A stretch of DNA of 54,383 nt from Candidatus Anstonellales archaeon (GCA_038740615.1 JAVYLQ010000002.1:1-54383); one strand, 5' to 3'. Positions 10,480 through 50,570 are shown, counted from the stretch's first letter. Numbers and translations are program-made. The notes: a model not told the origin generated them from the sequence alone.

Positions 10480-10490
10480 GGTGAATTGTT

Positions 10491-10895
10491 ATGATAGCCA
10501 TCATTAGAGTTAGAGGTAGATTTGGTCTGAAACCTAAAATCGCAGAAACTTTGAGATTGCTCAGATTGAACAAACCAAATCACTGTGTTGTATACAAGGA
10601 CAGCGAATCTCTAAGAGGTATGTTAAAGGTAGTAGAGAATTATGTTGCTTATGGGGAGATTAATGAAATTACTCTTAGAGCTCTGATTAGTAAAAGAGGT
10701 GAGATAGGTAGTAAAAGTGTTGATAATGTTGATGAGGTTATTGAACACTTCAAGAACACTGGTAAATGGATTATAGATCCTGTATTTAGATTACACCCTC
10801 CAAGAGGAGGATGGAAATCTATAAAGGAGAGATACCCTAAAGGTGCTTTGGGTAAACGTGATGATATGGATGATCTGTTAAAGAGGATGATGTGA
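10491..10895 (+). CDS. rpl30: 50S ribosomal protein L30 (uL30)
   Basis: IAIIRVRGRFGLKPKIAETLRLLRLNKPNH is typical uL30. Confidence 0.9.
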   Translation: MIAIIRVRGRFGLKPKIAETLRLLRLNKPNHCVVYKDSESLRGMLKVVENYVAYGEINEITLRALISKRGEIGSKSVDNVDEVIEHFKNTGKWIIDPVFRLHPPRGGWKSIKERYPKGALGKRDDMDDLLKRMM

Positions 10896-10896
10896 T

Positions 10897-11316
10897 ATGG
10901 TCAAAAGAGTGAAGAAAACTAAGAAGACTAAAAAACTAGGGCATAGGACGTTTGGTAGAGGTAATGTTAAGAACAGGAGAGGATCTGGTAATAGGGGTGG
11001 ATTTGGTAAAGCAGGATTCTGGAAACATGAGAAAACTGCATGGTTAAAGGATAAGGAGAAATTCCTCAAACAGAGAAAAGGATTTGTATCCAAGCGGGAG
11101 AAGCTACCTTCGATAAATCTATACCATATTCAGAGAATGATAGAGAGGGGAGAAATAGAGAGAGAAGGGGATGTCTATAAATATAGATTTGAAGGAAAGT
11201 TACTAGGTACAGGTGAATTAGACTATCCTGTTGTTATAGAGGTTATATCTGCTTCCAATAGGGCAAGAGAGAAAGTTCAGAAAGCTGGTGGAAAAGTAGT
11301 TGAGATAGGTAAATGA
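10897..11316 (+). CDS. rpl15: 50S ribosomal protein L15 (uL15)
   Basis: Basic Gly-rich N-terminus RGSGNRGGFGKAG and operon position before secY. Confidence 0.88.
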   Translation: MVKRVKKTKKTKKLGHRTFGRGNVKNRRGSGNRGGFGKAGFWKHEKTAWLKDKEKFLKQRKGFVSKREKLPSINLYHIQRMIERGEIEREGDVYKYRFEGKLLGTGELDYPVVIEVISASNRAREKVQKAGGKVVEIGK

Positions 11317-12713: not shown

Positions 12714-12714
12714 T

Positions 12715-13302
12715 ATGATTATTGTGATTACGGGTTTGCCTGGAGCAGGTAAGACTACTACTATAAATGAGGTCATGAAGAGATTAGGTGATAAGATAGA
12801 GGTAATATCTTTTGGTACAGAGATGATGAGAATTGTGGAGAGTAAATATGGGATCAAACACAGAGATGAGATTAGGAAGAAACTAACCCCTTCTCAGATT
12901 GAAGAGGTTCAGATAGAAGTTGCTAGAAGAATTCAGGAAATAGCTAATACTACTAAAAAATTAATCCTTGTAGATACTCATGCAGCAATTAAAACTGAAT
13001 TTGGATATATGCCTGGAATTCACGATGCAATGCTAAACAATATGGAAATTGCATCTTTTATCTATATAACTACTAAATACGAGGAGATATTGCTAAGGAG
13101 GGCGAAGGATAGTTCAAGATATAGAGATGAAGAAGACAAGGTTGAGATATCGTTGCATAATGAAATGAACCTAGCAGTTCTAAGCTCATGTTCTATCAAA
13201 ACAGGTGCTCCGGTGAAGATAATTATAAATAGAGATGGTGAACTAGAAAGAGCTGTTGAGGATCTACAGGAATATCTGCTAAAATGGATTCACCAGAACT
13301 AG
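12715..13302 (+). CDS. adkA: adenylate kinase, archaeal type
   Basis: P-loop ITGLPGAGKTT at the N-terminus and the canonical position after secY. ATG 12715 lies 1 nt after the secY stop; the track start 12703 is an alternative codon. Confidence 0.85.
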   Translation: MIIVITGLPGAGKTTTINEVMKRLGDKIEVISFGTEMMRIVESKYGIKHRDEIRKKLTPSQIEEVQIEVARRIQEIANTTKKLILVDTHAAIKTEFGYMPGIHDAMLNNMEIASFIYITTKYEEILLRRAKDSSRYRDEEDKVEISLHNEMNLAVLSSCSIKTGAPVKIIINRDGELERAVEDLQEYLLKWIHQN

Positions 13303-13871
13303 ATCTCTGGATTATATTTGTATTAGCTCTTATTTACTCTTCGATTTCGGTATTTTTTATAGCTAGGCAAGATTTCTACAAGAAGTATCAGGAAAGTGGT
13401 AAGAGATATTGGGAAGAATATATAGGGTTTCTGAAAGATGGATTGAAAATGACTCCTGAACAGATTGAGGAACGTAAGAAATTGTTGAATTCGCTGTTGA
13501 TGGAGCAATTTAAAAATATGCTAAAGATAAGTGTGGTATATTTGATAATGTTCTTAGGTGCAGCAAGTATAATCCAGTTCCTGATTGTAGAATCCCCAGC
13601 CAATCATCCATATGGGAGCATATGTATTGTTGATAATAAATATATATATGAGAACGGTGTTTATAAAGTTCCAGATTTATTCCATGATCAGATTGTTCAA
13701 GATATTAATCCAGAGAGCTATGTATGTCCTAGAGCAATTCTCTATCTACCTTTTCCTATACTAAATCTTCGATATGTGGTTGGTGAGATTAAGATATTTA
13801 TATTTTTTGTCATAATTATATCAATAATCTTAGGTATATTAAAGAAAAGAATTATGAAGATGGGCCCTTAG
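13284..13871 (+). CDS. membrane protein, probable DUF106/YidC-Oxa1-like insertase homolog
   Basis: Three TMs with a charged helical segment between TM1 and TM2, in the conserved archaeal secY-adk-DUF106 synteny position. The call rests on architecture and position only. The last 10 nt overlap tRNA-Ala. Confidence 0.5.
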   Translation: MDSPELDLWIIFVLALIYSSISVFFIARQDFYKKYQESGKRYWEEYIGFLKDGLKMTPEQIEERKKLLNSLLMEQFKNMLKISVVYLIMFLGAASIIQFLIVESPANHPYGSICIVDNKYIYENGVYKVPDLFHDQIVQDINPESYVCPRAILYLPFPILNLRYVVGEIKIFIFFVIIISIILGILKKRIMKMGP

Positions 13872-35241: not shown

Positions 35242-36850
35242 ATATATACTCATTCTCCCTGTCTTTTATTACATAACCCAATCTATTCAGATAGAGTCGA
35301 TCATTGTTGTAATATTTATCTGATATAACTCCTTCGATGATTTCCATGGAATTAGGATTGAGTTCTTCTTCCCCTAAAAACAATTCTCTAGGAATTTTTA
35401 CTCTTATGGTTTGAGGTTTCTCCACCCAATCTGTGACAGGTAATTGATTATCAGAAGTATAGCTTACAAAAATACCATTAACGTTCTTGACAACTCCTAG
35501 GCCTCTAAGATTCAGAATATCGGAATATTCTTTTTCATCAATATAGAGAGTTCCTTCCCAGAGAAATCTCTCCCCCTCTCTTTCTATTACTATCTTTGTG
35601 GATATTCTCCTTGGATTCTTTATGAATGGAATTTTAGGAATATCTTTCATTTTCCTATCCATTATTTCTCGATTTATATTTAGCAACATATCCCAATCTA
35701 CTTCAGTCTCCTGTTTACCTGGACCGAATCTAGATATGAATTCTTTTATAGCTGCAGGCAATATTCCTCTTCTTCTAAGAGCCCTAACTGTAGTTAGTCT
35801 AGGATCATCCCAACCATCTACTATACCTCTCTCCACAAGTTCTCTAATTTTTCTCTTAGATGTAATACTACCCCTAATCTCCAATCTGGAGAAATGTATC
35901 AGGATTATATCTCTCAATCCTAAATCTCTTAAGATAGAATGATATAGCTCAGTTCTTAGTTCATACTCTTTGGATCTTAGAGCATGAGATACCATCTGAA
36001 TACTATCTAGAATAGGTGTGGCAAAATCGTAAGTTGGCCAGAACTTATACTTAGTCTTGTGTCTATAATGTGGATGATTCACCACTCGGAACATGGTTGG
36101 ATCTCTCATGACAGTATTACTTGATGTCAGATCTCCTTTATATAGTGCAACAATCTCCCCCTCGTCATAATCTCCATTAACAGCTGCTCTGAACATTTCT
36201 AGATTCTCCTCTATACTATTGTTTCTTTCTGATACGGGAATTCCCTCTCTTCTCATCTTAGATATTTCCTCCTGACTAGCTAGAGTGAGATACATCCTAT
36301 CTGCAGCTATCAATTTCTCCGCGTATTTATACAGAATATCCATATAATCTGAGGAATGTGTGATATCTGAAAATTTGATCTTTAGCCACTCTAAATCTTC
36401 TATCATAGCTCTTTCAAACTCCTCAGATACCTTTTCTGGATTGGTGTCATCAAATCTTAATATCAATTTCCCAGAATACTTTTCTAAGTAGAAGGTGTTT
36501 AGAAAAACAGATTTACAATGCCCTATATGCATATATCCAGAGGGTTCAGGGGCAAATCTTAGCACGATATAGCTAGGATCATTAGGTAATAAGTATCTCT
36601 TCTCATTTCTCATATATTCTTGATAGTTATATTGAGCCAATTCTTTCTCTGCTTCCCCTAGATCCATGTTGTTAACAGAATTAATTATGTTATTGAGTAT
36701 TGGTATGATCTCTTTTACTCTTGTTTTTAGCTCTGGATGTTCATATAGAACCCAACTCACCGTGGATTTAAGATCAGCTTTACCATAGTCTATTCTATTC
36801 TTGAGTGCCTGTTTTCTAAAATCATTATAATATTTCTCTAAATCATCCAT
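35231..36850 (-). CDS. gltX: glutamyl-tRNA synthetase
   Basis: Class I HIGH region PEPSGYMHIGHCKS, then the archaeal/eukaryal GluRS-type catalytic and anticodon-binding layout. Own CTTTTAAAT box about 28 nt upstream. Confidence 0.85.
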   Translation of the reverse strand: MDDLEKYYNDFRKQALKNRIDYGKADLKSTVSWVLYEHPELKTRVKEIIPILNNIINSVNNMDLGEAEKELAQYNYQEYMRNEKRYLLPNDPSYIVLRFAPEPSGYMHIGHCKSVFLNTFYLEKYSGKLILRFDDTNPEKVSEEFERAMIEDLEWLKIKFSDITHSSDYMDILYKYAEKLIAADRMYLTLASQEEISKMRREGIPVSERNNSIEENLEMFRAAVNGDYDEGEIVALYKGDLTSSNTVMRDPTMFRVVNHPHYRHKTKYKFWPTYDFATPILDSIQMVSHALRSKEYELRTELYHSILRDLGLRDIILIHFSRLEIRGSITSKRKIRELVERGIVDGWDDPRLTTVRALRRRGILPAAIKEFISRFGPGKQETEVDWDMLLNINREIMDRKMKDIPKIPFIKNPRRISTKIVIEREGERFLWEGTLYIDEKEYSDILNLRGLGVVKNVNGIFVSYTSDNQLPVTDWVEKPQTIRVKIPRELFLGEEELNPNSMEIIEGVISDKYYNNDRLYLNRLGYVIKDRENEYIFTC

Positions 36851-36872
36851 GCTATTTTATGGAATACTCTAT

Positions 36873-37700
36873 TTAAAAGTTCAACTCTTCATAGATCCTG
36901 TTCTTCTCCTCTTTGGGAAGTGCTACTAGGGAGAATATAAGGAGCTTGGATAGATACAGAGCCTGTTCATTATCGTAGAAAGCCAGTAATCTGAGATAAG
37001 TGCTTTTAATCAATTCTATTAATTTCTGTTTATTTTCGTCTATTTTAGTCTGTATGGCAGGTAAGTTAGTTCTATTGATAAGTTTTCTGAGTTCAATAAT
37101 TTTTCTATCTAAATAGAATATCTCTAAAAATTTCTCCCGTATGGATTTGGGTAATAGCATAGGATTATAACCTAATGGAAAACTGTAGCTGCCCAATAGA
37201 TATTCTATTATCTCCGGCTTATATTCGATATTGTTCTCTAGTGCAAATACAACAGCCTGCATTTTCATTATCCTATCCACCACATCGTCGCTATAATTGA
37301 TAGCCCTATCCACCATACTCTGAATAGCAGATTTTTCAACAACAGTCCCTTTGGATCTGAAGTAATCGTATATTAAATAAACTATCGGATCGTATTCTCC
37401 TTGAGAATATGGTTTTATGTTATGTATTAGTATCTCTATGTATTCTTTCAATTCTGGACTCTGATTGATACGTTCCAGAAGTTGATTTGCCTCCTGTATG
37501 GTTAATCTTAACTCCACGAGAATCTGAATTGCTCTTTTTATATATTCGTCATCCAAATGTCTCTGAAAAAGTTTGATATATATGATAGCTAATGATAACT
37601 TATCCTCATCAGATAGATGTTTAGCTTTTCTGAATGCATATTCTGCTAACTGTACATACCCATTTGCATATAATACTTTTGCAGCGATATTATAGATCAT
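36873..37700 (-). CDS. hypothetical all-helical protein, third gene of the SMC-like operon
   Basis: 275 aa. ATGA overlap with the stop of the Rad50-like gene. Confidence 0.55.
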   Translation of the reverse strand: MIYNIAAKVLYANGYVQLAEYAFRKAKHLSDEDKLSLAIIYIKLFQRHLDDEYIKRAIQILVELRLTIQEANQLLERINQSPELKEYIEILIHNIKPYSQGEYDPIVYLIYDYFRSKGTVVEKSAIQSMVDRAINYSDDVVDRIMKMQAVVFALENNIEYKPEIIEYLLGSYSFPLGYNPMLLPKSIREKFLEIFYLDRKIIELRKLINRTNLPAIQTKIDENKQKLIELIKSTYLRLLAFYDNEQALYLSKLLIFSLVALPKEEKNRIYEELNF

Positions 37701-39949
37701 AATAATACTTTACTATAATTTACAGATCCATCCTTGCTCTTTTCTCTGAATACTTGGATAACCTGATTCCACATCACATTATTCTTTAATCTATCATCAT
37801 GTGTTATTATTATAAATTGATCTATATGATCTAAACTCAGTCTATTGATATTGTCTACAAGATTATCTATTGAAGAATCATCTAGATTATGAGTTGGTTC
37901 ATCCAGTATTATAACTCTTAATCTCCTAGTGATTAGATTCAGAATGGCTAGTCTCAATGATAGTGCATAGATAGTTTTCTCCCCTCCACTCAATCGATCA
38001 GCAGAAACCTCATTATCTCCTATGGAGATCTTCAATTCATATCCATCAGATTTATCTACAACTATCTTTGGATCATTGTAAACCACACCTGCGTAAAGAG
38101 AATTCCAGAATAGACCCATACCTAGATTGATGTTCTGTATATATACTTGTCTATTCTTTGTCTGTAGATCTGAAATTCTATTCTTTATCTCCTCTAATTC
38201 TTTCTGCAAAGCTCTTAATATCTCCACACGCTCTATCTTCCTTTTCATATCTTCAATATCTCTTTCTAATATCTCTATAGACTTCTGGAACTCTCTGCTC
38301 TGATTAGTTAGTAGATTTATTTCTGATTTAGTACGTTTTATAGCCTCTTGTAATTCTACATATCTTTTAGACCATTCTCTGTATATTTTATCATTTATCT
38401 CTAGTGATTTGAGTGTTTGATCTATCGATTCTAAGTTTTTAACAAAATCTTCCAACTCCTGCCTCAACTCTAATAATCTTTTCTGATCTTTCTTATAAGA
38501 TTCTATATTTCCAAGTGCTCTGGATATCTCATCTCTGCGTCTCTCCAACTCTTTACCATAATCAGAAGGGATTTTGCTCATGATATCTTTAAGTTGTTCG
38601 GAGACATTATTCTTATCATTCTTCAATTTCTCCAACTCTTGCTCCAGATCATCCAATTCATTCTGGATAGAACTGATCTCGGCTTCAATCCTTTTGATAT
38701 CATTGCTAACTCTTTCCAATTCATTACCCCATCTCCTCTTCTGTTCATTATATTTAATATAAAGATATAATGCTGCTATCACAAAAGCCATAGCAAGTAA
38801 TAATGCAAGATTTATTACAAACATCCCAACTCCAAAAGCACCTACAGCTAAAATTACAGCCATTATAAAAGTTAAATTTGAGGGTTTGGACCTATTCAGT
38901 TGTTCCAACTCTTTTCTTAACCTATCTAATTCAAAATTATGCTCCCCCAAGATTCTATACAATTCTTCTCTATTTCTAAATACACTATCGTACTTCTGAT
39001 TGAGCTGATTCTGCAAATCATTCAATTTCATCGATTGATCTGTATATAACCTAAACTGTTCAATCTCCTTCTCTAGCTGCAATCGCCTCTCTTCTAATAC
39101 TTCCGGATCTTCTAACTGAATATTGCTGATTATCTGTTCCAATTTTTTAATATCCTGATTTAATCTATCTATCTTGGTTTCAGTCGCTATTTTTTTATCT
39201 CTGTATTGGATGTATTTATTGTATTTCTGTTCTATTGTTTCCTTCTGCTTAGTCATATCCTCATAATCTTTCTGCAATGATCTGAATTGTGAGTTCAACT
39301 CCTCTATTCTGGAGAGAGTGGTTTGATATCCTGATTTGAGTCTCTCCAATTCTTTCTGCTTATTTCTATAACCATCCAAATCAATCTCCGTCTGCTTTAT
39401 CTGATCTCTGATTCTATTTATGATCTTAGTTATCTTATCTATTCTATCTTGTATCTCTTCTATTCCCAATACTCTATCTATATTTAGTTTTAGCTCTTTG
39501 GGAGGCATGTTTATTAGCTGGTATATATTATCTTGAGCTCCATAGAATACATTACCAAATAATCTTTCATCTATATTCAGAATTTTAGTTATATGCCTTA
39601 GTATCTCATCATCATTTTCAGATATGAGATTTGAGTTATAATAAAGTGCAGATCTACTTGGCTTATCTCTATATAAGTTCCTAACGATTCTGAAATTCTT
39701 CCCATCAACAGAAAACTCAATCTCTACCTTTGCAGACTTCTCTCCATCCCGTATGAAATTCCTCCTATTCTGCCGATTTATTCCTCTGTAACTAGTCTTT
39801 ACTTCACCGAATAGAGCAAACACAATCCCCTCTACAATACTAGTCTTACCGGAACCATTCTTACCATGAATTAATATCTTACCATGTCTAAAAGAGATCT
39901 GTGTATCTCGGTGAGACATCCAATTCTGCAGTATCAATTTTTGTATCAT
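37697..39949 (-). CDS. Rad50/SbcC/SMC-like ABC ATPase with central transmembrane hairpin
   Basis: Walker A GKNGSGKTS, signature LSGGEKT, Walker B VIILDEPTHNLD and H-loop IIITHD. Coiled-coil arms of about 200 aa flank residues 358-398, NLTFIMAVILAVGAFGVGMFVINLALLLAMAFVIAALYLYI. The protein contains no cysteine. Confidence 0.8.
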   Translation of the reverse strand: MIQKLILQNWMSHRDTQISFRHGKILIHGKNGSGKTSIVEGIVFALFGEVKTSYRGINRQNRRNFIRDGEKSAKVEIEFSVDGKNFRIVRNLYRDKPSRSALYYNSNLISENDDEILRHITKILNIDERLFGNVFYGAQDNIYQLINMPPKELKLNIDRVLGIEEIQDRIDKITKIINRIRDQIKQTEIDLDGYRNKQKELERLKSGYQTTLSRIEELNSQFRSLQKDYEDMTKQKETIEQKYNKYIQYRDKKIATETKIDRLNQDIKKLEQIISNIQLEDPEVLEERRLQLEKEIEQFRLYTDQSMKLNDLQNQLNQKYDSVFRNREELYRILGEHNFELDRLRKELEQLNRSKPSNLTFIMAVILAVGAFGVGMFVINLALLLAMAFVIAALYLYIKYNEQKRRWGNELERVSNDIKRIEAEISSIQNELDDLEQELEKLKNDKNNVSEQLKDIMSKIPSDYGKELERRRDEISRALGNIESYKKDQKRLLELRQELEDFVKNLESIDQTLKSLEINDKIYREWSKRYVELQEAIKRTKSEINLLTNQSREFQKSIEILERDIEDMKRKIERVEILRALQKELEEIKNRISDLQTKNRQVYIQNINLGMGLFWNSLYAGVVYNDPKIVVDKSDGYELKISIGDNEVSADRLSGGEKTIYALSLRLAILNLITRRLRVIILDEPTHNLDDSSIDNLVDNINRLSLDHIDQFIIITHDDRLKNNVMWNQVIQVFREKSKDGSVNYSKVLL

Positions 39950-40683
39950 ATTTTTCTAATTGATAGGGAAAACTTATTAAAATATAAATTAGCCCCTAGA
40001 ATCACAAGGAATGGTACTATTATAAATATGTTTATTACCAACATAATAATTCTAACAATATCCAATGGAAATACTAGGCCAAATATGAAGATTAGAATTA
40101 GATTTATAATCAAGCCTATAGCAGAATACATAATCGGATAGATTGCTAGCTCTTTTCTAAAAATATATAGTTTCTTAATTGCTCTGTCAAAATCGACTTC
40201 TTCTATAACAATAGCATATGGTATAAATAGGAATATATAGCTGATTAGGAAGAATATTATTGAGAGTAACATAGGATCCCATGCATTTACATACCATAAT
40301 ACTGAGAGATTGAACTGTATCAGAAACCAGATTATAAATATCTTATAGACTTCTGGAAAACTAGAGATGATGTTTTTTATAAACACACTTGGGTGTATTC
40401 TATCGGCTCTGTATTCTTTGGTAGCTACTGTTAATATAATCAGGGATAGAGTATAGAGTGCAATAACGATCAGAAAAGAGAATAGTGCAAATATGAACTC
40501 GAGTAGATTTATTTCAGTTATTTTAGATATACGTAGGAATATTCCTGTAACAGAAATATATATGTAATCTTGAAAGGTCAATATTAGAATACCTGTGACT
40601 GTAAGTATAACAAACCCTAGTAATATGATCAAATCATAAGCCTGTTTAAATATCTCTATACTACTTCTAATCTCAAATATCAT
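39946..40683 (-). CDS. polytopic membrane protein, first gene of the SMC-like operon
   Basis: About 6-7 TM helices. ATGA overlap with the Rad50-like start. ATG 40683 is preferred because an ATTTAAAAA box lies about 28 nt upstream. The track start 40755 would overlap the divergent PDO gene. Confidence 0.6.
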   Translation of the reverse strand: MIFEIRSSIEIFKQAYDLIILLGFVILTVTGILILTFQDYIYISVTGIFLRISKITEINLLEFIFALFSFLIVIALYTLSLIILTVATKEYRADRIHPSVFIKNIISSFPEVYKIFIIWFLIQFNLSVLWYVNAWDPMLLSIIFFLISYIFLFIPYAIVIEEVDFDRAIKKLYIFRKELAIYPIMYSAIGLIINLILIFIFGLVFPLDIVRIIMLVINIFIIVPFLVILGANLYFNKFSLSIRKI

Positions 40684-40727
40684 ATATATATTAAAACCTA
40701 AGTTTTTAAATATAAACAGGTGATTCC

Positions 40728-41393
40728 ATGAGAAACCTATTAGATGCAGAGACAAGAAAGATCCTAACAGATTATCTGAGCAAGATGGAGAGCGAGGTAG
40801 AGCTAGTTGTTATTTTAGATCACAATTCTCCAAATTGTGTTTACTGTAAAGATATACAACAACTGTTTACAGAACTAGCCGAATTGGATATACCTAAACT
40901 GAAGATAACTATATTTGATAAATATCATCCTGAATTTGAAAAGAGATATGGGATACGCGAATCTGATGTTCCTGCCATTGTGTTTGTGAATAATAATATA
41001 AAAGGACAGATAGTCTATAGAGGCGTTCCATCAGAACAGGAATTTAGTGTATTTATAGAGACTATATTAGAGGTATCATTGGGACACATACATATCCCTC
41101 AGGAACAAATAGAGAAATTAAATAGAATTGATAAGAAAATTAAGATAAATGTTTATGTAACTCCAACATGTCCTTACTGTCCAACAGCAGTAGCAATGGC
41201 ATTTGCAACAGCAATGGTTAATCCAAATCTCTCAGCACATGCAGTTGAGGTGACTGAATTTCAGGAAGAGGGAGCTAAATACAATATAAGAGCTGTACCT
41301 ACAATAGTTATAAACGATGGAGCAGTTAAATTTGAGGGAGCATTGCCCTTGGATCGATTTATAGCTAAGATTGAAGAAGCTGCAAAGAAATGA
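40728..41393 (+). CDS. protein disulfide oxidoreductase (two thioredoxin-fold units)
   Basis: Two CxxC sites (CVYC and CPYC) in a protein of about 220 aa, as in the PDO of hyperthermophiles. Confidence 0.8.
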   Translation: MRNLLDAETRKILTDYLSKMESEVELVVILDHNSPNCVYCKDIQQLFTELAELDIPKLKITIFDKYHPEFEKRYGIRESDVPAIVFVNNNIKGQIVYRGVPSEQEFSVFIETILEVSLGHIHIPQEQIEKLNRIDKKIKINVYVTPTCPYCPTAVAMAFATAMVNPNLSAHAVEVTEFQEEGAKYNIRAVPTIVINDGAVKFEGALPLDRFIAKIEEAAKK

Positions 41394-43174: not shown

Positions 43175-44713
43175 ATGGGAATTATCGATATCATAACCAG
43201 AAATTTATTCATGCTGGCTCTAGGTCTGGGAATAGGCCTAGCTATAGCTATTTTGATATACTTCTACAATCTGATATTCAAGAAAGATCAGGCTAAATCC
43301 TTAGATGCAGTTAAAGATGTTATTATAGTTGTTTTCTATCTAGTATTACTATTTGCAATTGATCTTGCATATAATCTATTCCTATCGGCATGGTTAGGTA
43401 TCCCTGTAAGTCCGGGTGATAATCTGAGGATTGCTGAGGCAGTAATCTACAAAGATATCGATAAATTCAGGGAGACTCTGATGTATATATATGTAGCGGA
43501 TTTTGTGATTAATCTCTTTGGATCATTTTCAGCACATTTACATGCAGCAATAAACCCAGAGATGACCAAGTTGCAAGGATTATCCCCCCTAAATAGAGTA
43601 ATGGAAGGTATGACTTCATTATTGGGGAAGGCTAGTTTGGATCCTTACAAGGCAGAGATGGGGATTGATTATTTCTATAAGATGAATTCTGCAATACAAC
43701 TGCTCTACAATGCTTCATATGGTCTGTTCCTAGTTCTTGTATATAAATACATCAAACTCACAGTTATAACCTACTTACCTCTAATCATGTCCATCTTTAT
43801 TCCTCTAGGTCTAGTTCTAATATTCATACCTATTACTAGAAAGGTAGGAATGACTATTGTTGGATTGGCAGTAACACTTTACTATCTCTTCCCAGTGTTT
43901 ATAATATATTCAGACACTGTTCTTAGGAATATGCCCGATTTTGATCACAGATATATTTCAGCGTATATCTCTCCTACTATAGTAGAGTTTTTGGATAAGA
44001 GTTCAGGATCTAATCCTGCCACAAGAGTAGGTTATAAGTACGCATTTATAGAGAGAGAACAGGCAATACAGAGATCTCTGGATTATATATTCTTAGAACA
44101 GGATAGGAGCAACATCATGGAGCCGGATCAGAACAATCCTGTAGGGAAGCTGGAGAAAGAAGGAGTAGGTGTGTTTCATATATATTCATTTGTAGATGCA
44201 CAATCAGTATGTGACCCAGGGACTAATGACAGAGAAGTTTGTAGAGAATATCAAACAGCTAACATTGGTGACTACAGATCGGAGAATGTATTAGCTCCTC
44301 TTGGATCTCTGTATGCAAATACAGTAAAATACTCTGCCATAGTTAGAGTAGGAACTGCTATCAAAGAGGTTATATCCACAGTATCTATAACAGCCTCTCT
44401 AAATCCGTTTGCAGTTGCACTGATAAATATACTTGGAATGGCTATTAATATGTTCCTGTTTGCAATCCAAATAACCCAGGTGTTACCTATCCCTGGATTG
44501 AGCCAAATCCTATATGGAGCTCTAAATATCCCATTCTTACCATTTCTGATGTTTAGAACTGCATTAGAAGCAGCATTGATAGCCTACAAGATAATTATAT
44601 ATGGATCTATTACTATCTTTTTAGATATCTTCCTGATTATCACTGGATATAGGGCAGTAGCATCTATAATAGGAGCTGAGCAGAGAATACTAGGTTTGGA
44701 GAAGGTGCTGTAG
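43175..44713 (+). CDS. polytopic membrane protein, paralog 1 of 6 (unassigned family)
   Basis: 512 aa. Core motif PLGLVLIFIPITRKVGMTIVGLAVTLYYLFPVFIIY. Loop of about 130 aa with C-x9-C. C-terminus ...GAEQRILGLEKVL. Confidence 0.75.
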   Translation: MGIIDIITRNLFMLALGLGIGLAIAILIYFYNLIFKKDQAKSLDAVKDVIIVVFYLVLLFAIDLAYNLFLSAWLGIPVSPGDNLRIAEAVIYKDIDKFRETLMYIYVADFVINLFGSFSAHLHAAINPEMTKLQGLSPLNRVMEGMTSLLGKASLDPYKAEMGIDYFYKMNSAIQLLYNASYGLFLVLVYKYIKLTVITYLPLIMSIFIPLGLVLIFIPITRKVGMTIVGLAVTLYYLFPVFIIYSDTVLRNMPDFDHRYISAYISPTIVEFLDKSSGSNPATRVGYKYAFIEREQAIQRSLDYIFLEQDRSNIMEPDQNNPVGKLEKEGVGVFHIYSFVDAQSVCDPGTNDREVCREYQTANIGDYRSENVLAPLGSLYANTVKYSAIVRVGTAIKEVISTVSITASLNPFAVALINILGMAINMFLFAIQITQVLPIPGLSQILYGALNIPFLPFLMFRTALEAALIAYKIIIYGSITIFLDIFLIITGYRAVASIIGAEQRILGLEKVL

Positions 44714-44714
44714 A

Positions 44715-45788
44715 ATGTTGTCGATCATAGATAGTTTTGTTGTAGCGTTAGTGATGATAGTTGCTGGGTATATATTGTTACTATTTGTCATGGCTAGACT
44801 TAGTAGTAACGAAGAGTGGAAACAGAATTTCAAGATAGAGTTGCAGCAGCTACTATTGAGCTTGCTATTACTAATAGGTGTATATGCAATAGCAGGTTTT
44901 GTTACTACAATATATCAATACTATACAGGTGGATTGGATGCATTCAACTACCTCTCCATTCAACTAATATCCATAATGAAAAACTTACACTTCTATGCGT
45001 CTCATCTAACTCTTTCAGCATCTCTAATGAGAATGTTTGGAGAGTTTACAAATATAGGTTATCCGCATGGTTCTTATGGATCAGCTAGATTACCCACTAC
45101 TCCTGGTGTAGATCTGTTAGCGTCAGTTACTTTTCAGATCAGAGATCTGCTTATGATAGCTACAGGTGGTTTGGTTATGCAATCTATACTTTTTGATCTT
45201 ATAAAGAATCTAGCACTTACTGTAGTATTGCCCATAGGGATTGTTTTGAGAATCTTGCCAATCACTCGACAATTTGGAAATGAACTGATCGGTCTGAGTG
45301 TTTCATCATATATAATATTACCCATCATATATTTGGTTTTCTTCCAAACCATTCAGGAAGTTGCTAATGAGCGAGGAGGGTTTATAGAAAGATTTGTTGA
45401 TGGATATCTTGCAATAGGTGACACCAGATTGATAGAGCCAGATAAGATAATCGTTGATATACAGAAAGATCACCAGGCTAGTATTCAGGACAGTATGGAT
45501 AGGTTGAACAACTATTTTGATAGGTATAAATCAGAGATTGATTCAGAAGTAATGGGAAGTACTGCTGACGAGCATAAGCTCTATAGATTCTTTGAAACCT
45601 ATTTAACTACTGGGTTGGTATTAGGATTTCTAAATGTAGGATTCCCCATATCATTTCTATTTCTTTACTCTATATTACTATATGCCTCAGGATTCTTAGT
45701 ATTTGGATTTGGATTACCAGGATTTGCCATAGCAATCACACTGACAGCTGCTAAGAGTATTAGAGATTCTCTGGAGAGATTGGTATGA
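44715..45788 (+). CDS. polytopic membrane protein, paralog 2 of 6
   Basis: 357 aa. Core motif PIGIVLRILPITRQFGNELIGLSVSSYIILPIIYLV. C-terminus ...SIRDSLERLV. Confidence 0.75.
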   Translation: MLSIIDSFVVALVMIVAGYILLLFVMARLSSNEEWKQNFKIELQQLLLSLLLLIGVYAIAGFVTTIYQYYTGGLDAFNYLSIQLISIMKNLHFYASHLTLSASLMRMFGEFTNIGYPHGSYGSARLPTTPGVDLLASVTFQIRDLLMIATGGLVMQSILFDLIKNLALTVVLPIGIVLRILPITRQFGNELIGLSVSSYIILPIIYLVFFQTIQEVANERGGFIERFVDGYLAIGDTRLIEPDKIIVDIQKDHQASIQDSMDRLNNYFDRYKSEIDSEVMGSTADEHKLYRFFETYLTTGLVLGFLNVGFPISFLFLYSILLYASGFLVFGFGLPGFAIAITLTAAKSIRDSLERLV

Positions 45789-46972
45789 ACCCAATTATAG
45801 ATGGGGTTGCTCCTATTATAGGAATATCGATTATGATATATGTCATAGCCTATCTTGTAGGAAGGGTCTTGAACAAACCTGATATACCTGCCTTTATCAA
45901 CATGGAGCTCCTATCGTTGATAATTTTCATAATTCTATTAGTAGTGTTGTTGTATATGTTGGATTTTGCAGTTGATATAACTATATCGAATCTTAATCCT
46001 GATGCAAAGTCTGAAGTATGTGACAAATATGGAATCTCTGTATCAAGATGTCATGTTGCTATAGCAGGATATTTTCTAGAGAGTGTACTTAGAGAACTTA
46101 CAGATTATTATATACAACTAAACGCAGTTCTTCTAACTACTAATTTTGTAAAGCAAACTTATTCTGTGAAAGCAATTCAGGGAGATAAATTCGTAAAGCT
46201 GAACATGAATCCATTTATATTCATACCCTCACTGTACATAGAACCTATAATTGGATTGGTTCAGACGATGTTGCAGTTCGCTATAGCACAGTTCATCGTT
46301 CTTTGGTATATCACATCTCCGCAGTTTTTCATAGGTTTCTTGACTTTAGGAATTGTTCTTAGATTATTTGCTGTAACCAAATCGGCTGGTGGATTGATAA
46401 TAGCTCTAGTTATAGGTTTATATTATGTATTTCCAATGGCATATGTTCTGATGGATGTACACTACAGATATTCATATCCTGGTACTTATGGATTTGATAA
46501 GATAAATACTTATAGAGTTACTGATCATCTCCTATCTGTATTTGGAATCCCATTTGGAGATCGATTAGATGCGGCCATAAATGCCATATTGAATGTAGAG
46601 AGTAAGCCCATTGATCCTACCGATCCTGATTCAGTAGTTAGTAGTTTAGGTGCTGCTCTCAGTAACATGGCTAGCATAGCTAAAGCGGTTATAAAGATTG
46701 CTACTGTATTAGGTGCTATGCTATCAATATATACCCTCTCCTTTTTACCGCCTGTAGCTATAGGATATACTCTTGTAGGAGATGCTGTTCCAGATATAAT
46801 GCGTAGTATTATTAATATGCCTATTATTCTATTAAACATCTACACCGAATTTTTTATAATATTTGCAGTACTAATATACATATCTCTAATAAGCACTGTG
46901 GCATTCGTTAAGACACTATCCCCAATATTAGGTGGTGACGTTGAAATTGCTGGTATTACTCGTTTTATATAG
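45785..46972 (+). CDS. polytopic membrane protein, paralog 3 of 6
   Basis: 395 aa. Core motif TLGIVLRLFAVTKSAGGLIIALVIGLYYVFPMAYVL. C-terminus ...LGGDVEIAGITRFI. Confidence 0.75.
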   Translation: MNPIIDGVAPIIGISIMIYVIAYLVGRVLNKPDIPAFINMELLSLIIFIILLVVLLYMLDFAVDITISNLNPDAKSEVCDKYGISVSRCHVAIAGYFLESVLRELTDYYIQLNAVLLTTNFVKQTYSVKAIQGDKFVKLNMNPFIFIPSLYIEPIIGLVQTMLQFAIAQFIVLWYITSPQFFIGFLTLGIVLRLFAVTKSAGGLIIALVIGLYYVFPMAYVLMDVHYRYSYPGTYGFDKINTYRVTDHLLSVFGIPFGDRLDAAINAILNVESKPIDPTDPDSVVSSLGAALSNMASIAKAVIKIATVLGAMLSIYTLSFLPPVAIGYTLVGDAVPDIMRSIINMPIILLNIYTEFFIIFAVLIYISLISTVAFVKTLSPILGGDVEIAGITRFI

Positions 46973-48212
46973 CGTCCTATCATTGGCCTCCTCATGTGAC
47001 GATGAGGGATTTATTAGTCAGGAGTGTATTGAGAGAGATATTTATGGTAAGTTTGATGAGAATCTTGTGTATAGTGGATTTAAAAAGGTGTTTTTAGATG
47101 CGAGAAATACTGCTCTAAATGTGTTAGATAATCTAATCGTAAATGTAATAGGTCCGTATACATTCTGTAAAAGCACTAATCCTGTAGATGTATCCAATCT
47201 TTTGAACACAGTTGGAATAATAGCATTCATATCGTTGCTTCTCGTATACATTCTAAATGCTATTGCATCTATCTTTGGATTACAATGGAGAATATCTCTG
47301 TTGGATGAGGCGTTTCAAGCTCTATTAACCATATTAGTAGTAATACTGATAGTAGGGGTTGTTAATTACTATGCTTATAATAGCATATTCGTTCAGGCAA
47401 AACAGTATGTGGTTAATATAATTATAAATTTCTCATTCTTCTCCATGCTGCTTAAGACTATTGAAACTATGTTAGTAGCTCTATCAAATATTACAATCCC
47501 ATTTGGTCCTCCAGATGCTAGAGGAATTTTTGGGGTATCATTCTCCCAATTATTCACAATAGTATTCAAATCTTTTGATGTGATAAAAGGATTCTTCAAT
47601 CTAGCTATATTAGAGTATGTATTTAAACTATTCCTCTTATGTATAGGTCCAAGAATAATAATTGATCTCCTTCTTCCCATAGGCGCACTCATGAGAGCAT
47701 TCTACTTTACTAGACCTGGGGGGAATGTGCTCTTAGGTATCTCAATCGCATTTATCGTAATATACCCTCTGATAATGTATATCTATTCAAAGATATATTC
47801 GCAGATCTCCTACATATGGGAAATAGATCTTGCTGAAGCTGCATACAGAATGGTTATCGCTGCTATCATGGGAGCCATATCTTCAAAATTGATCCCTGCA
47901 GCAGCCAGAGCTCTCAGATCATCCACATTTGATACTCTTAGAAATCTAATTAACATAAAGAAAGTTTGGGATGCTCTGAATAATTTTGCTCATATAATTA
48001 GTATGAACAGTTTTGGTGTTGGTGCTGTAGTAGGTCTATTGTATTTCCTACCAGCTCTGATGTATATAATATTTGGATATTTGCAATTAGCTCTGGTATT
48101 TGCAGTAATACTAGGACCATTAGCTCTGTATTTTACCGTATCATTAACAGGTCAGATAAGTAGAGCTCTTGGTACTGAAATAAATATTGCTGCTCTATCG
48201 AGGTTGATATAA
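46932..48212 (+). CDS. polytopic membrane protein, paralog 4 of 6, with N-terminal signal-peptide-like segment
   Basis: Core motif PIGALMRAFYFTRPGGNVLLGISIAFIVIYPLIMYI. C-terminus ...LGTEINIAALSRLI. AGGTGGTGA Shine-Dalgarno inside the paralog 3 3' end, so the likely start is TTG 46941, giving MKLLVLLVLYSVLSLASSC. Confidence 0.7.
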   Translation: MVTLKLLVLLVLYSVLSLASSCDDEGFISQECIERDIYGKFDENLVYSGFKKVFLDARNTALNVLDNLIVNVIGPYTFCKSTNPVDVSNLLNTVGIIAFISLLLVYILNAIASIFGLQWRISLLDEAFQALLTILVVILIVGVVNYYAYNSIFVQAKQYVVNIIINFSFFSMLLKTIETMLVALSNITIPFGPPDARGIFGVSFSQLFTIVFKSFDVIKGFFNLAILEYVFKLFLLCIGPRIIIDLLLPIGALMRAFYFTRPGGNVLLGISIAFIVIYPLIMYIYSKIYSQISYIWEIDLAEAAYRMVIAAIMGAISSKLIPAAARALRSSTFDTLRNLINIKKVWDALNNFAHIISMNSFGVGAVVGLLYFLPALMYIIFGYLQLALVFAVILGPLALYFTVSLTGQISRALGTEINIAALSRLI

Positions 48213-48213
48213 G

Positions 48214-49587
48214 ATGAATATCGAGAAAAATATTGATGCTAATCAGATTCAGATCATGGTCAAGGATATGATCGATAGTATATCTGATACATGTACTGAT
48301 CCGATTAATGATAGATGTATTGATGAGAAACAAACATTGGCTGAATCTTTTGAGGCTCTGAAACCACAGATAGGATTCTTCAGTAAAGCTATAGAGACTG
48401 CCGTAGATAAGATATTTGGTAATCTCTATAGATTAGGAGCAGGTACGAAAATATTCGATGATAAGTACTGCCCCACTGTACAGAATTTAGGATTTGTGAC
48501 AAACTACTTTGGTCTAGCCGTAATACTATTACTATCATATCTCTTTATAGAATTCATAGCTAGGATTCTAAATAACACCAAATACACTGCTCTAGCTAGA
48601 AGGGAGATAATGGAAATTATAATAATCATTCCTCTGCTAATCGCTCTTCTCAATCTACCATGTTTTATATCTATAAATGATAATACACCACTCCATACCA
48701 AATCACTACTGTATATACATTCTGCAATTGTATCTTCTATGATATCCCTGATCCCCCTATCTTATTACGCAGCAACTGTAGGAGCTCATGCTGTTATGAT
48801 AGTGCAGAATCTAGGAGGGGGAGCTCCACAGACATTGCCCCTCTCATATCAATACTATGAATCCTCACTATCCTTGAGCAAACAGGTCGCATCATTCTTA
48901 ACATTATCTTTCATTTGGATAGGGACATTTGCATTCATGTATGACATCTTCACCTATGGATTTGTAAAATACCTATTACCTTTAGCACTTCTACTTAGAT
49001 TCATACCATTCACTAGAAGTCTAGGGGGAGGACTCATAGGATTGATAATAGCTACAAATCTATTCATACCAATTATCCTATCAATCAACTATGAAATCAT
49101 AAAGATGTTTGGGGCAGGATATTTCTATTATAATAATGGTAATGTAACCTTCAAATTCAACCCATGGTTAGAGATGGCTATACATATATTTGGAGCATTC
49201 CTAATCCTAATGAGCTCTCTGTATATATTAACAGGTTTTAGATTGTTTATAGATATACGAAATGTGATAAGCAGATTCAAAATATGGCAGGCTACTAGAG
49301 AAGGAATGAAAAGGATGTTGGCATCTCTGATAGGAGCAGCAGGAGGAGCTGCAGCAACCACCTTAGATCTATTTCTAGCTATGAGAGTGCTGTCTACATC
49401 ATCACTAAGGGTATTTGCATTCCAGATTCCTCTATTAATAATTATAGCAGTTATAATCGTATCTGCTATAATCTTCAATTTACTCCTCCCCACAGTATCA
49501 TTACTCTTCCTCACATCAACAATAAAATACATGTCAGCTATATTTGGAGATGAATTTGATCTTGCTAATCTGACGAGGTTGATATAA
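48214..49587 (+). CDS. polytopic membrane protein, paralog 5 of 6
   Basis: 457 aa. Core motif PLALLLRFIPFTRSLGGGLIGLIIATNLFIPIILSI. C-terminus ...FGDEFDLANLTRLI. Confidence 0.75.
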   Translation: MNIEKNIDANQIQIMVKDMIDSISDTCTDPINDRCIDEKQTLAESFEALKPQIGFFSKAIETAVDKIFGNLYRLGAGTKIFDDKYCPTVQNLGFVTNYFGLAVILLLSYLFIEFIARILNNTKYTALARREIMEIIIIIPLLIALLNLPCFISINDNTPLHTKSLLYIHSAIVSSMISLIPLSYYAATVGAHAVMIVQNLGGGAPQTLPLSYQYYESSLSLSKQVASFLTLSFIWIGTFAFMYDIFTYGFVKYLLPLALLLRFIPFTRSLGGGLIGLIIATNLFIPIILSINYEIIKMFGAGYFYYNNGNVTFKFNPWLEMAIHIFGAFLILMSSLYILTGFRLFIDIRNVISRFKIWQATREGMKRMLASLIGAAGGAAATTLDLFLAMRVLSTSSLRVFAFQIPLLIIIAVIIVSAIIFNLLLPTVSLLFLTSTIKYMSAIFGDEFDLANLTRLI

Positions 49588-50570
49588 TGGACGAGTATCA
49601 GGTTGTTGCCATAACCTTCGCACTAATAGGAGTAATAATCGGTATAATCCTCTATCAATTGTCCAAAATATTCAATCTTGGGGGTCTGAAAAGATATTCT
49701 GAGATGTTCATATGGGAAGCAGGAGTTACAGTTCTCTTAGCCCTGTTCCTATTTGTTATGATAGATAGATTAAATAATTTCCTATTCGATATATCTCAAG
49801 AGATGTTCAAAACTATTGGTAAGGATATCTCTGGGGTTAATCCTAAGACACCCATGGCTGCTGCTAGAGTTGTTTTGAATGAATTGATAAATAGTTGTTA
49901 TCTTAGAACATACGGGGCATTGTTGATGGTTCAGGCACTCTTTGAATCTGTTGGAATGTCCATAGCTAGTGTTGGTGCGGAGAATACTAATCTACCTACT
50001 GCAAGCTTAGCCTTTGGAACTATATATATATCAGACCTTCTGAAGATAATGTTTTTCCTGGTTTGGAGCAGTATGGCAATGTTTAAACTCATGGTATTCT
50101 TCTCTGCATACTACCCATTTCTTATAATGCTAGGAATTATACTTAGAGCGTTTGAACCCACCAAATCTCTGGGGGCATACTTGATAAGTCTGGGTATTGG
50201 ATTATATGTAGTTCTGCCAATGAGTTATAATATAGGAATTGTGCTGAATTATAACGATTTACTCTGTTCATTACCTAAGAGAATACAGAGTGATGATACT
50301 CTGGGAATGGGTTATGCAAATGCTTTTGATATAGGAGAGAATTCTAGAAGCTTTGTAGCAGTGTCATCGGTCATCTCTATGTTTGTCTCGATATTCCTAT
50401 TAATAACCAATCCATCTACTCTGGTTAGTTTCATATATTCAATAATGGCTCTATCATTTATAGCTCCTCTGATTGCATTCATATTTGCTCTATCATTCGT
50501 GAATATCTCCACTACTGCACTTGGAGGAAGGATTAGTGAAGTAGGAAGAGGTCTATTTAGATTAGTTTAA
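49587..50570 (+). CDS. polytopic membrane protein, paralog 6 of 6
   Basis: 327 aa. Core motif MLGIILRAFEPTKSLGAYLISLGIGLYVVLPMSYNI. C-terminus ...LGGRISEVGRGLFRLV. TAATG overlap with paralog 5. Confidence 0.75.
   Translation: MDEYQVVAITFALIGVIIGIILYQLSKIFNLGGLKRYSEMFIWEAGVTVLLALFLFVMIDRLNNFLFDISQEMFKTIGKDISGVNPKTPMAAARVVLNELINSCYLRTYGALLMVQALFESVGMSIASVGAENTNLPTASLAFGTIYISDLLKIMFFLVWSSMAMFKLMVFFSAYYPFLIMLGIILRAFEPTKSLGAYLISLGIGLYVVLPMSYNIGIVLNYNDLLCSLPKRIQSDDTLGMGYANAFDIGENSRSFVAVSSVISMFVSIFLLITNPSTLVSFIYSIMALSFIAPLIAFIFALSFVNISTTALGGRISEVGRGLFRLV

Follow-up and report, generated by a model that had tools for sequence, protein, structure and literature searches.

The closest described relatives of the ATPase reported here are the archaeal Rad50 proteins, above all their short hook form of approximately 760 aa (solved relative: M. 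jannaschii Rad50, PDB 3AUX, 3AV0 and 5DNY). They share with our protein the same split head motifs and antiparallel arms of similar length, and archaeal Rad50 represents its best match in NCBIfam as well as in the PDB. Unlike archaeal Rad50, however, the ATPase has no CxxC hook and belongs to a group with an apolar hairpin of 30-43 residues instead, it is encoded without an adjacent Mre11 gene, the place upstream being taken by a membrane-protein gene, and the Rad50 equivalog cut-offs are far from being reached.

Two other systems need to be mentioned. Arcadin-4 (Rkd4) is likewise a Rad50 derivative, which moved away from Mre11 into another operon, and its length is similar (747-aa model). The arcadin-4 family occurs in the context of crenactin clusters. 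This context is absent here, no actin-family Pfam match was recorded among the neighbours of our module, the phylum is a different one and the ATPase scores only 113.8 bits where the arcadin-4 model demands 860. Arcadin-4 nests in Rad50 according to a survey that never uses the words membrane or transmembrane (PMC9389158). The second system is SbcE (YhaN) of B. subtilis, an SbcC/Rad50-like protein without CxxC, with a hydrophobic and insoluble central domain and with heptad arms that are each some 300 aa long, the partner of which, SbcF (YhaO), is an SbcD/Mre11-like nuclease (PMC2811018). It is the only described case we found of the same architectural idea. The likeness (SbcC-like head, no CxxC, hydrophobic centre) is one of architecture only, because the Pfam model AAA_27 (SbcE/YhaN) reached 16.3 bits on our ATPase against a cut-off of 22, which indicates no specific sequence relationship. 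Furthermore, SbcE is bacterial, longer and has a nuclease instead of a membrane protein as partner, and no SbcF/YhaO-like nuclease gene is adjacent to the ATPase here or in its relatives. Most likely, SbcE and the hairpin ATPase arose independently.

Among the candidates that were rejected are the SMC proteins proper, since SMC_hinge (PF06470) gave no match and SMC_prok_A only 112 bits versus 729, and the ASRP / ClsN / Sph group with 86.2 bits for NF045487 against a cut-off of 300. Most members of the latter group have a zinc hook, which our ATPase lacks.

The locus and its genes

The module was found in a window of 54,383 nucleotides, i.e. the whole stretch of DNA that was analysed, and its features are the following:

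39946..40683, minus strand: membrane-protein gene, 245 aa from ATG (ORF; a longer ORF from TTG extends to 40755)
37697..39949, minus strand: Rad50-derived ATPase gene, 750 aa, whole ORF including the stop codon
36873..37700, minus strand: gene of an all-helical cytoplasmic protein, 275 aa (ORF)
40684..40727, no strand: divergent intergenic region, A/T-rich, 44 bp, adjoining a thioredoxin-fold (PDO-like) gene (sequence)
39455..39949, minus strand: N-terminal ABC-head half, aa 1-165, Walker A and Q-loop (motifs, PDB alignment)
38879..39454, minus strand: N-terminal coiled-coil arm, aa 166-357, sole Pro at aa 282 (heptad contrast and composition)
38756..38878, minus strand: apical hydrophobic helical hairpin, aa 358-398 (aligned with the CPxC zinc hook position of relatives)
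38135..38755, minus strand: C-terminal coiled-coil arm, aa 399-605, Pro 461 and Gly 465 (heptad contrast and composition)
37700..38134, minus strand: C-terminal ABC-head half, aa 606-750, signature, Walker B/D-loop and H-loop (motifs, PDB alignment)

The original prediction of three minus-strand genes linked by ATGA overlaps could be reproduced in coordinates and junctions: the stop of the membrane gene overlaps the start of the ATPase gene, and the stop of the ATPase gene overlaps the start of the helical gene. Both expected TATA-like elements were also located by sequence and represent putative promoters, namely TTTATATTTAAAAA at 40703-40716 within the divergent intergenic region (-33 to -20 relative to the ATG of the membrane gene) and TTTTAAAT at 36871-36878 (-28 to -21 relative to the ATG of gltX). 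The head-to-head order with the thioredoxin-fold gene is kept in the full-module relatives (L001-L005, L015, L017).

A Rad50-derived head on two matched arms

The split Rad50-type head with complete motifs that had been proposed is indeed present. Walker A (GKNGSGKTS at aa 29), Q-loop (YGAQD at aa 136), signature (LSGGEKT at aa 653), Walker B/D-loop (VIILDEPTHNLD at aa 679) and H-loop (IIITHD at aa 713) were all located, these catalytic motifs are invariant among orthologues, and the head aligns to M. jannaschii Rad50 as closest solved relative (E 4e-40), with the Rad50 proteins of P. furiosus and T. maritima also being found. When the head was compared with Rad50/SMC-like families in profile and PDB searches, Rad50 came out nearest: Pfam returned SMC_N and AAA_23, and the five best NCBIfam matches are Rad50 equivalogs, all of them under cut-off, the best one (NF003034) with 194.3 bits versus 700 and the other Rad50 models likewise. 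Judged from sequence, the head is Rad50-derived, and its function may have diverged, because the scores are far under every Rad50 equivalog cut-off.

The two heptad-rich arms of approximately 200 aa each, also part of the earlier claim, are indicated by heptad contrast and composition. The heptad contrast, a crude in-house measure and not a trained predictor, amounts to 0.4-0.9 over aa ~151-357 and ~399-600 versus 0.2-0.3 in the heads, and the composition of both arms is typified by 40-50% charged residues and a near absence of Pro and Gly. The arms are matched in length (about 195-205 residues each), and Pro 461 and Gly 465 of the C-terminal arm sit roughly across from Pro 282 of the N-terminal one. 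Arms and apex evolve fast in sequence, their length being kept.

An apolar apex in place of the zinc hook

At the position of the CxxC zinc hook of Rad50, the ATPase carries the postulated hydrophobic segment, which aligns with the CPxC of relatives. The uncharged apex extends over 41-43 residues, the uncharged run itself over 43, and its Kyte-Doolittle profile (19-mer) peaks at 2.7; the chance expectation for such a run is ~6e-7 in a protein consisting to 40% of D/E/K/R/H/Q. All five members of the hairpin clade show such an uncharged apex (30-43 residues, peaks of 2.3-3.0), and the flanks on both sides are neutral to basic with a net charge of 0 to +3. Within one 90% cluster, 32% of the hairpin sites are variable compared to 3-10% elsewhere, and all substitutions are apolar or small, a pattern that would match the expectation for a lipid-facing anchor. 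The membrane topology is nevertheless uncertain, since the hairpin has just 30-35 residues in four of the five members, too short for two canonical spans; it may be re-entrant rather than forming two full membrane spans. The absence of Cys from the ATPase, to which importance had been attached, was confirmed and extends to both neighbouring proteins, but it is not remarkable, because of the 48 ORFs in the window with 150 aa or more, 22 are Cys-free, and Cys makes up 0.65% of the residues.

Partner proteins, distribution and origin

The upstream membrane protein, for which 6-7 TMs had been given, is polytopic with 245 aa, but its predicted span number is about six, with a probable N-in/C-in orientation. 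Its orthologues have 241-245 aa, all from the same ATG, and share conserved cytoplasmic elements, i.e. a KEYR loop, an amphipathic helix at 165-174 and the C-terminal tail PF..ILGANLYFNKFSLSIRKI. No sequence match was found in Pfam, NCBIfam, PADLOC or PDB. The AF2 model (pLDDT 82.5, pTM 0.80) is all-helical with one beta-hairpin, and its best Foldseek matches are CysZ (3tx3, probability 1.0, TM-score 0.47-0.53, E 0.02), together with CTL/PNS1 proteins (9f63, 9qu3; TM-score 0.49-0.59); this is a weak fold likeness that does not permit a transfer of function. The helical protein (AF2 model with pLDDT 82 and 14 helices) has no fold or sequence relative in Pfam, NCBIfam, PADLOC, PDB or the fold searches. 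Conservation is highest for this protein among the three, with 65-68% identity in comparisons in which the ATPase shows 35-40%.

When 1.84 billion proteins were searched with a profile, just four clusters turned out to have the apical hairpin, each of them from Micrarchaeia with the same module, whereas the remaining 146 top matches all have a central CxxC. The same module is present in every relative examined, and the hairpin architecture and its partners without Mre11 were kept in four lineages at just 35-40% identity. The membrane gene is translationally coupled upstream of the ATPase gene in three lineages, including L020, in which the pair stands in a different genomic context. Hence, the expected linkage is conserved, in all three lineages for the membrane-ATPase pair and in two of them for the helical gene, which is coupled to the ATPase there and missing from the third. 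Sequence comparison therefore indicates that the helical partner is not essential to the core module and that the conserved core is the two-gene pair of membrane protein and ATPase. The absence of adjacent Mre11, NurA or HerA genes was correctly seen: no Mre11/Metallophos, NurA or HerA gene is adjacent to the module here or in syntenic relatives, and tblastn with three Mre11 queries found nothing in the approximately 54-kb window or in the 5-22-kb stretches of the relatives, although an Mre11 gene farther away in these genomes is conceivable.

The history of the apex can be approached through the more distant orthologues. It had been considered that a hook in orthologues would make the hairpin a lineage artefact; the hook-bearing module orthologues L004/L017 and L014/L020 do have CPVC at the aligned apex, but this does not turn the hairpin into an artefact. 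It points to a lineage-specific swap of hook for hairpin inside a module that already had the membrane protein. In a quick neighbour-joining tree of the heads, calculated without support values, the hairpin clade is monophyletic and sister to the hook-bearing P0095 and P0097, and all of them nest among the short (approximately 760-aa) hook-bearing archaeal Rad50s. Both hook-bearing sisters encode a membrane-protein homologue directly 5' of the ATPase with an ATGA overlap, which argues that the membrane partnership is older and the hook-to-hairpin swap came later.

Alternative explanations

An ordinary double-strand-break repair Rad50 with a distant Mre11, functionally unrelated neighbours and a tolerated degeneration of the hook is unlikely, even though the head is closest to Rad50, short Rad50-like genes of other lineages (P0096, P0104) stand alone without adjacent Mre11, and the entire neighbourhood is syntenic in close relatives, so that linkage counts for less among these. 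However, the ATGA overlap with the membrane gene persists in three lineages with L020 among them, Mre11 was found neither in the window nor in the relatives' stretches, and the hook has not been degraded: the segment in its place is longer and has stayed apolar throughout at an identity of only 35-40%.

Quite unlikely appears a structural or cytoskeletal Rad50 derivative comparable to arcadin-4, which would have no DNA role and would act as a long, membrane-anchored coiled-coil strut that organises the division site, the zone of host contact or the envelope. A precedent exists in the nesting of arcadin-4 in Rad50 (PMC9389158), the arcadin-4 model NF053563 is among the NCBIfam matches, and fast evolution of arms and apex at constant length would suit a strut. 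Against this stand the score far under the arcadin-4 cut-off, the lack of any cytoskeletal gene in the neighbourhood and the strict conservation of all ATPase motifs, which favours an active ATPase cycle.

It is improbable as well that the heads serve as NBDs on the 6-TM protein in an ABC-transporter-like or mechanotransmission complex, with coiled coil and hairpin as stator and a substrate other than DNA. The translationally coupled order of membrane protein and ABC ATPase resembles transporter operons, permeases (CysZ and PNS1/CTL1) head the fold search with the membrane protein, and the conserved cytoplasmic elements of this protein could be read in the same direction. But these fold matches are weak (E 0.02, TM-score about 0.5), and the head groups with Rad50, transporter families being hit with E 1e-7 to 1e-8 in the C-terminal motif region only. 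Moreover, the coiled coil of approximately 29 nm is, to our knowledge, unprecedented among transporters.

Very improbable is an apex outside the membrane, i.e. a soluble, buried four-helix dimerisation knob in place of the hook. In four of five members the hairpin is short for two spans, and turns with Gly and Asn/Pro would fit a tight helical hairpin; yet a dimer of hairpins would still present a fully apolar surface, the free drift within apolar residues is unlike a packed interface, the flanks follow a positive-inside pattern and a polytopic membrane protein is encoded next door as obligate neighbour. Finally, an anti-virus defence module consisting of an SMC-like ATPase (Lamassu LmuB, PbeC/DndD, mad3-like) and a membrane effector is hardly credible, because the PADLOC matches of the ATPase (mad3 6e-35, LmuB 4e-31, PbeC 3e-24) are generic and head-level as for any Rad50/SMC protein, both partners lack a PADLOC match, so that no system-specific partner was found, and all the full-module lineages have the locus at one and the same site, surrounded by housekeeping genes for aminoacyl-tRNA synthetases and ribosomal proteins and not in a variable island.

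Proposed function and biological meaning

The reading we prefer, with a probability of about 0.5, is that the ATPase is a lineage-specific, Mre11-less archaeal Rad50 derivative in a membrane-integrated complex for ATP-gated DNA tethering; its architecture is well supported, its function inferred. Each chain would fold back to an antiparallel coiled coil of approximately 29 nm, the hairpin of which would be inserted into the cytoplasmic membrane from inside the cell, either by a pair of short spans or in the form of a re-entrant wedge. There it would lie beside the 6-TM partner, by which apex or complex may already have been kept at the membrane in hook-bearing ancestors, and partner and bilayer would now substitute for the zinc-mediated pairing of the apices. 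ATP binding would engage two heads and clamp DNA on them as in Rad50, and hydrolysis would lead to release. The helical protein might occupy the region of head and coiled-coil base that is used by Mre11 in Rad50 and serve there as an adaptor or regulator without nuclease activity, and nuclease processing by this complex would not be expected. The net role would be to fasten the chromosome, or DNA that comes in, to the membrane of a small archaeal episymbiont under the control of ATP. With regard to the docking side, the heads are just as plausible as the apex for the membrane partner, in the style of ABC transporters.

More tentatively, and with considerable doubt, we consider a nuclease-free, Rad50-derived and SMC-like ring that would be closed by the bilayer and a dedicated 6-TM subunit instead of a zinc hook and would capture and hold DNA at the envelope of a genome-reduced episymbiont. 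If true, such a ring-at-membrane machine could anchor the cell's own chromosome or serve the uptake of DNA at the host contact site, and archaea would have an equivalent of what has been proposed for bacterial SbcE, a role at the competence pole. In any case, the hook tip of Rad50 has been swapped for a membrane-type hairpin in a small group of uncultivated symbiotic Micrarchaeia, and a membrane-protein gene stands where Mre11 would be usual, which suggests a Rad50 machine located at the membrane.

Organization of the module

The source organism, a member of Candidatus Anstonellales, is placed in the class Micrarchaeia, phylum Microcaldota, within the DPANN group. The module consists of three minus-strand ORFs in head-to-tail order, which are connected by an ATGA stop/start overlap at both junctions. 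In public annotation, the module genes appear only as 'SMC family ATPase' (the entry for the ATPase in the window), 'exonuclease SbcC' or 'hypothetical protein'.

Genes of the module (from the ORF list) and the divergent neighbouring gene
39946-40683, minus strand, membrane protein gene (245 aa counted from the ATG)
37697-39949, minus strand, ATPase gene (750 aa)
36873-37700, minus strand, helical protein gene (275 aa)
40728-41393, plus strand, thioredoxin-fold gene (221 aa, two CxxC motifs, PDO-like; Thioredoxin_3, E 3e-24)

In the mechanically derived ORF list, the membrane protein gene reaches upstream to a TTG at 40755. Since this version overruns the start of the divergent gene (40728) and the orthologues, all of 241-245 aa, begin at the same ATG, position 40683 is the likely start.

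A Rad50-family ATPase with an apolar apex

The central protein of the module is a Rad50-family ATPase. Its Pfam matches are SMC_N and AAA_23, and its top five NCBIfam models are Rad50 equivalogs, all of them far under their cut-offs (best 194 vs 700 bits) and followed by arcadin-4, SMC, ASRP and SbcC. In a PDB search using a profile from four orthologues, Rad50 of M. jannaschii was the best solved relative (E 4e-40), Rad50 of P. furiosus and T. maritima came next, and SMC heads were well behind. PADLOC matches (mad3, LmuB, PbeC) covered the head region alone and were judged to reflect generic similarity.

The split Rad50-type motifs and the two heptad-rich arms of the original prediction were both recovered. 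The arms (approximately residues 151-357 and 399-600) are rich in charged residues (40-50%), nearly devoid of Pro and Gly and marked by a strong heptad contrast; each arm has one break (P282; P461/G465), and the distances of these breaks to the apex are roughly equal.

Motifs of the ATPase
aa 29, Walker A, GKNGSGKTS
aa 136, Q-loop, YGAQD
aa 653, LSGGEKT
aa 679, VIILDEPTHNLD
aa 713, IIITHD

Between the arms, residues 356-398 form a run of 43 consecutive residues without D, E, K or R, reaching a Kyte-Doolittle peak of 2.7; given that D, E, K, R, H and Q make up 40% of the protein, chance alone would yield approximately 6e-7 runs of this kind. The hairpin had been placed at nt 38756-38878, which proved exact, and the protein indeed contains no cysteine. 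However, of the 48 window ORFs with 150 aa or more, 22 are cysteine-free, and Cys accounts for 0.65% of residues, hence the lack of cysteine matters only because a zinc hook is thereby excluded.

Five divergent hairpin-bearing proteins (35-40% mutual identity) have uncharged runs of 43, 35, 32, 35 and 30 residues, with Asn, Pro or Gly near the midpoint and a flanking net charge of 0 to +3. Because four of the five hairpins are short, the segment may span the membrane twice or dip into it as a re-entrant wedge. Within the 90% cluster of the window protein, 32% of the hairpin positions are variable compared to 3-10% elsewhere, and all replacements in the hairpin are apolar or small. Substitutions of this kind are more in keeping with an anchor exposed to lipid than with a packed protein interface.

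From zinc hook to hairpin

Among 5.8 billion proteins, a word-based search returned three close relatives (95, 39 and 38% identity), followed by a sharp fall to 22-25%; in this lower tier, the three loci examined (those of the ATPases P0004, P0005 and P0007) encode hook-bearing Rad50s linked to Mre11. When 1.84 billion cluster representatives were searched exhaustively with a HMMER profile, an apical apolar run without central CxxC was found in four clusters (P0001, P0002, P0093, P0094), whereas each of the other 146 top matches carries a central CxxC. Furthermore, the search with the helical protein led to locus L004 (also L017), a more distant lineage in which all three genes and their overlaps recur, while its ATPase, of 720 aa, bears CPVC at residue 368. 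A third lineage (ATPase P0095; loci L014 and L020) likewise bears a CPVC hook, and directly upstream of its ATPase, again joined by an ATGA overlap, lies a membrane-protein homologue with 33% identity to the one of the window (E 1e-27) and 40% to that of L004 (E 3e-34).

In the multiple alignment, the hairpin occupies the position of CPxC in the hook-bearing lineages and in canonical Rad50s. The neighbour-joining tree of the head halves, which carries no support values, shows the hairpin clade as monophyletic and sister to the two hook-bearing lineages; together they are nested among hook-bearing Rad50-like proteins of approximately 760 aa, a larger group including the Mre11-linked P0004 and P0007 as well as the solitary P0096 and P0104. 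Since the hook-bearing sisters already possess the membrane partner, the tree indicates that membrane association came before the swap of hook for hairpin. The succession of events would thus have begun with a short archaeal Rad50, which would have taken on a polytopic membrane protein as partner instead of an adjacent Mre11, before one sub-lineage would have exchanged the zinc hook for the apolar hairpin.

The original prediction had held that orthologues with a CxxC at this position would mark the hairpin as a lineage artefact. Such orthologues do exist in both sister lineages, but the artefact reading does not hold, as the substitution is real and conserved. Regarding the proposed conservation of the three-gene operon, the pair of membrane protein and ATPase recurs in three lineages, but the helical protein gene is missing from the L014 lineage.

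The membrane protein and the helical protein

Neither partner could be assigned to a known family. The membrane protein, 51-58% identical between lineages, had no match in Pfam, NCBIfam or PADLOC, and none at E <= 1 in the PDB sequence profile search. Its AF2 model (pLDDT 82.5, pTM 0.80) contains about six long helices, short paired helices and a small conserved beta-hairpin (YIYISVTGIFLRISK); the best Foldseek matches were CysZ and the choline-transporter-like fold of PNS1/CTL1, both weak (E 0.02, TM-score approximately 0.5). From the distribution of K and R we infer an N-in/C-in topology, which would place the conserved KEYR loop, the invariant C-terminal tail and an amphipathic helix on the cytoplasmic side.

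The helical protein is the best conserved member of the module, with 65-68% identity compared to 35-40% for the ATPase and the lower value of the membrane protein. Searches of Pfam, NCBIfam and PADLOC gave no match of meaning, and the PDB sequence profile search none at E <= 1. Its AF2 model (pLDDT 82) comprises 14 helices. Foldseek matches of this model in the PDB did not rise above generic noise from TPR and designed-repeat proteins (best E 0.05, TM-score approximately 0.2), thus a kleisin- or Mre11-like identity is unsupported. In its place downstream of the ATPase, the third lineage carries a tandem pair of paralogous ORFs (240 and 269 aa, 32% mutual identity; L014 2561-4116, L020 2839-4394) without Pfam match. 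Comparison of the helical-protein profile with the two ORFs of L014 by hhalign gave a probability of at most 0.1, therefore the third gene is not conserved in that lineage.

Genomic surroundings and distribution

In every full-module lineage, the module lies between the divergent thioredoxin-fold gene and gltX, which has the same orientation as the module. The module ATG and the thioredoxin-fold start are separated by 44 A/T-rich bp (40684-40727), and a TATA-like candidate promoter element is found at -33 to -20 of the module ATG. The head-to-head pairing with the thioredoxin-fold gene is retained even in the distant hook-bearing loci L004 and L017. On the other side (window 36848-36878, minus strand), 22 bp lie between the stop codon of the helical protein gene and the ATG of gltX; a TATA-like TTTTAAAT, situated at -28 to -21 of this ATG, overlaps the stop codon. 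Transcription of gltX could start at a promoter of its own or continue from the module.

That no Mre11 gene is adjacent was confirmed on a wider scale: neither the 54-kb window nor the fetched flanks of the relatives contain an Mre11 homologue, and a second SMC/Rad50 head is likewise absent from both, apart from L004. Directly downstream of gltX, L004 encodes a canonical SMC of 1000 aa with hinge domain (10375-13377), so that module and SMC lie close together there, unlike in the window. The module is rare and narrowly distributed in the collections scanned; the helical-protein profile found it in only 3 species representatives of the genome collection, and the membrane-protein profile detected only 2 loci in JGI metagenomes.

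The window (G+C 31-39%; six tRNA genes and no further Rfam family) also holds six consecutive, tightly packed plus-strand ORFs at 43175-50570 (512, 357, 395, 426, 457 and 327 aa) without Pfam match at E <= 0.01. The same block, likewise without Pfam matches, occurs at L001-L003, the loci of the relatives with 38-39% identity (512/362/400-404/422-424/461/327 aa). Its first protein resembles a polytopic membrane protein, and the block may be a conserved envelope system of these symbionts that has so far gone undescribed.

Comparison with known systems and proposed mechanism

By descent, the closest family is archaeal Rad50, but the module ATPase departs from a Rad50 equivalent in three tested features, namely the hook, the Mre11 neighbour and the curated score. 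By design, its nearest analogue is SbcE/YhaN of B. subtilis, which is SbcC-like, has no CxxC and contains a hydrophobic, insoluble central domain (PMC2811018). However, the partner of SbcE is an SbcD-like nuclease instead of a membrane protein and no specific sequence kinship connects the two ATPases, thus their resemblance is most likely convergent. An unrelated SMC-like ATPase from a Logan assembly (P0055, 1278 aa) also has two TM-like helices in mid-protein (approximately aa 545-590) and no central CxxC, which suggests that a membrane segment between coiled-coil arms arose more than once. As arcadin-4 illustrates, other cellular systems can recruit derivatives of Rad50 (PMC9389158). No membrane-inserted archaeal Rad50/SMC protein is described in the archaeal SMC-related survey (PMC9389158) or in the other literature searched; within this literature, the hairpin, a real and conserved feature and not an artefact, is new for archaea.

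In the proposed mechanism, the ATPase chain would fold back into an antiparallel coiled coil of approximately 29 nm (arms of roughly 195-205 residues, each residue adding about 0.15 nm), and the hairpin would enter the membrane from the cytoplasmic face beside the 6-TM partner, so that membrane partner and bilayer would replace zinc-mediated apex pairing. ATP would bring the heads together and DNA would be clamped as in Rad50, while the helical protein would bind the moderately conserved region of head and coiled-coil base, the site of Mre11 in Rad50. Alternatively, the complex may adopt a transporter-like geometry with the heads at the membrane. We favour the apex at the membrane, also for the hook-bearing ancestors, because the swap of hook for hairpin would then have required little more than a change from peripheral to integral attachment.

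Architecture and DNA tethering combined, we assign this reading a probability of roughly 0.5. Its architectural part, i.e. a Rad50-type ATPase with intact catalytic motifs and matched arms, whose hook position is taken by an apolar hairpin and whose translational coupling to the membrane protein is older than this hairpin, is highly probable. DNA tethering as the function is a tentative proposal, towards which we lean less than away from it.

Biological significance

In DNA tethering and sensing by Mre11-Rad50, zinc hook and coiled-coil length play a central role that is still under debate. The module offers a natural comparison, in which sister lineages share the same membrane partner, some with a hook and others with a membrane hairpin, and which points to apex pairing being transferable to the membrane. 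Moreover, the module demonstrates that a symbiont genome of approximately 1 Mb can retain a Rad50-type ATPase with no Mre11 next to it. Provided that it binds DNA, the complex would be the first membrane-integrated machine of the SMC superfamily in archaea, and through it the organisation or acquisition of DNA at the envelope of DPANN-type symbionts could be approached.
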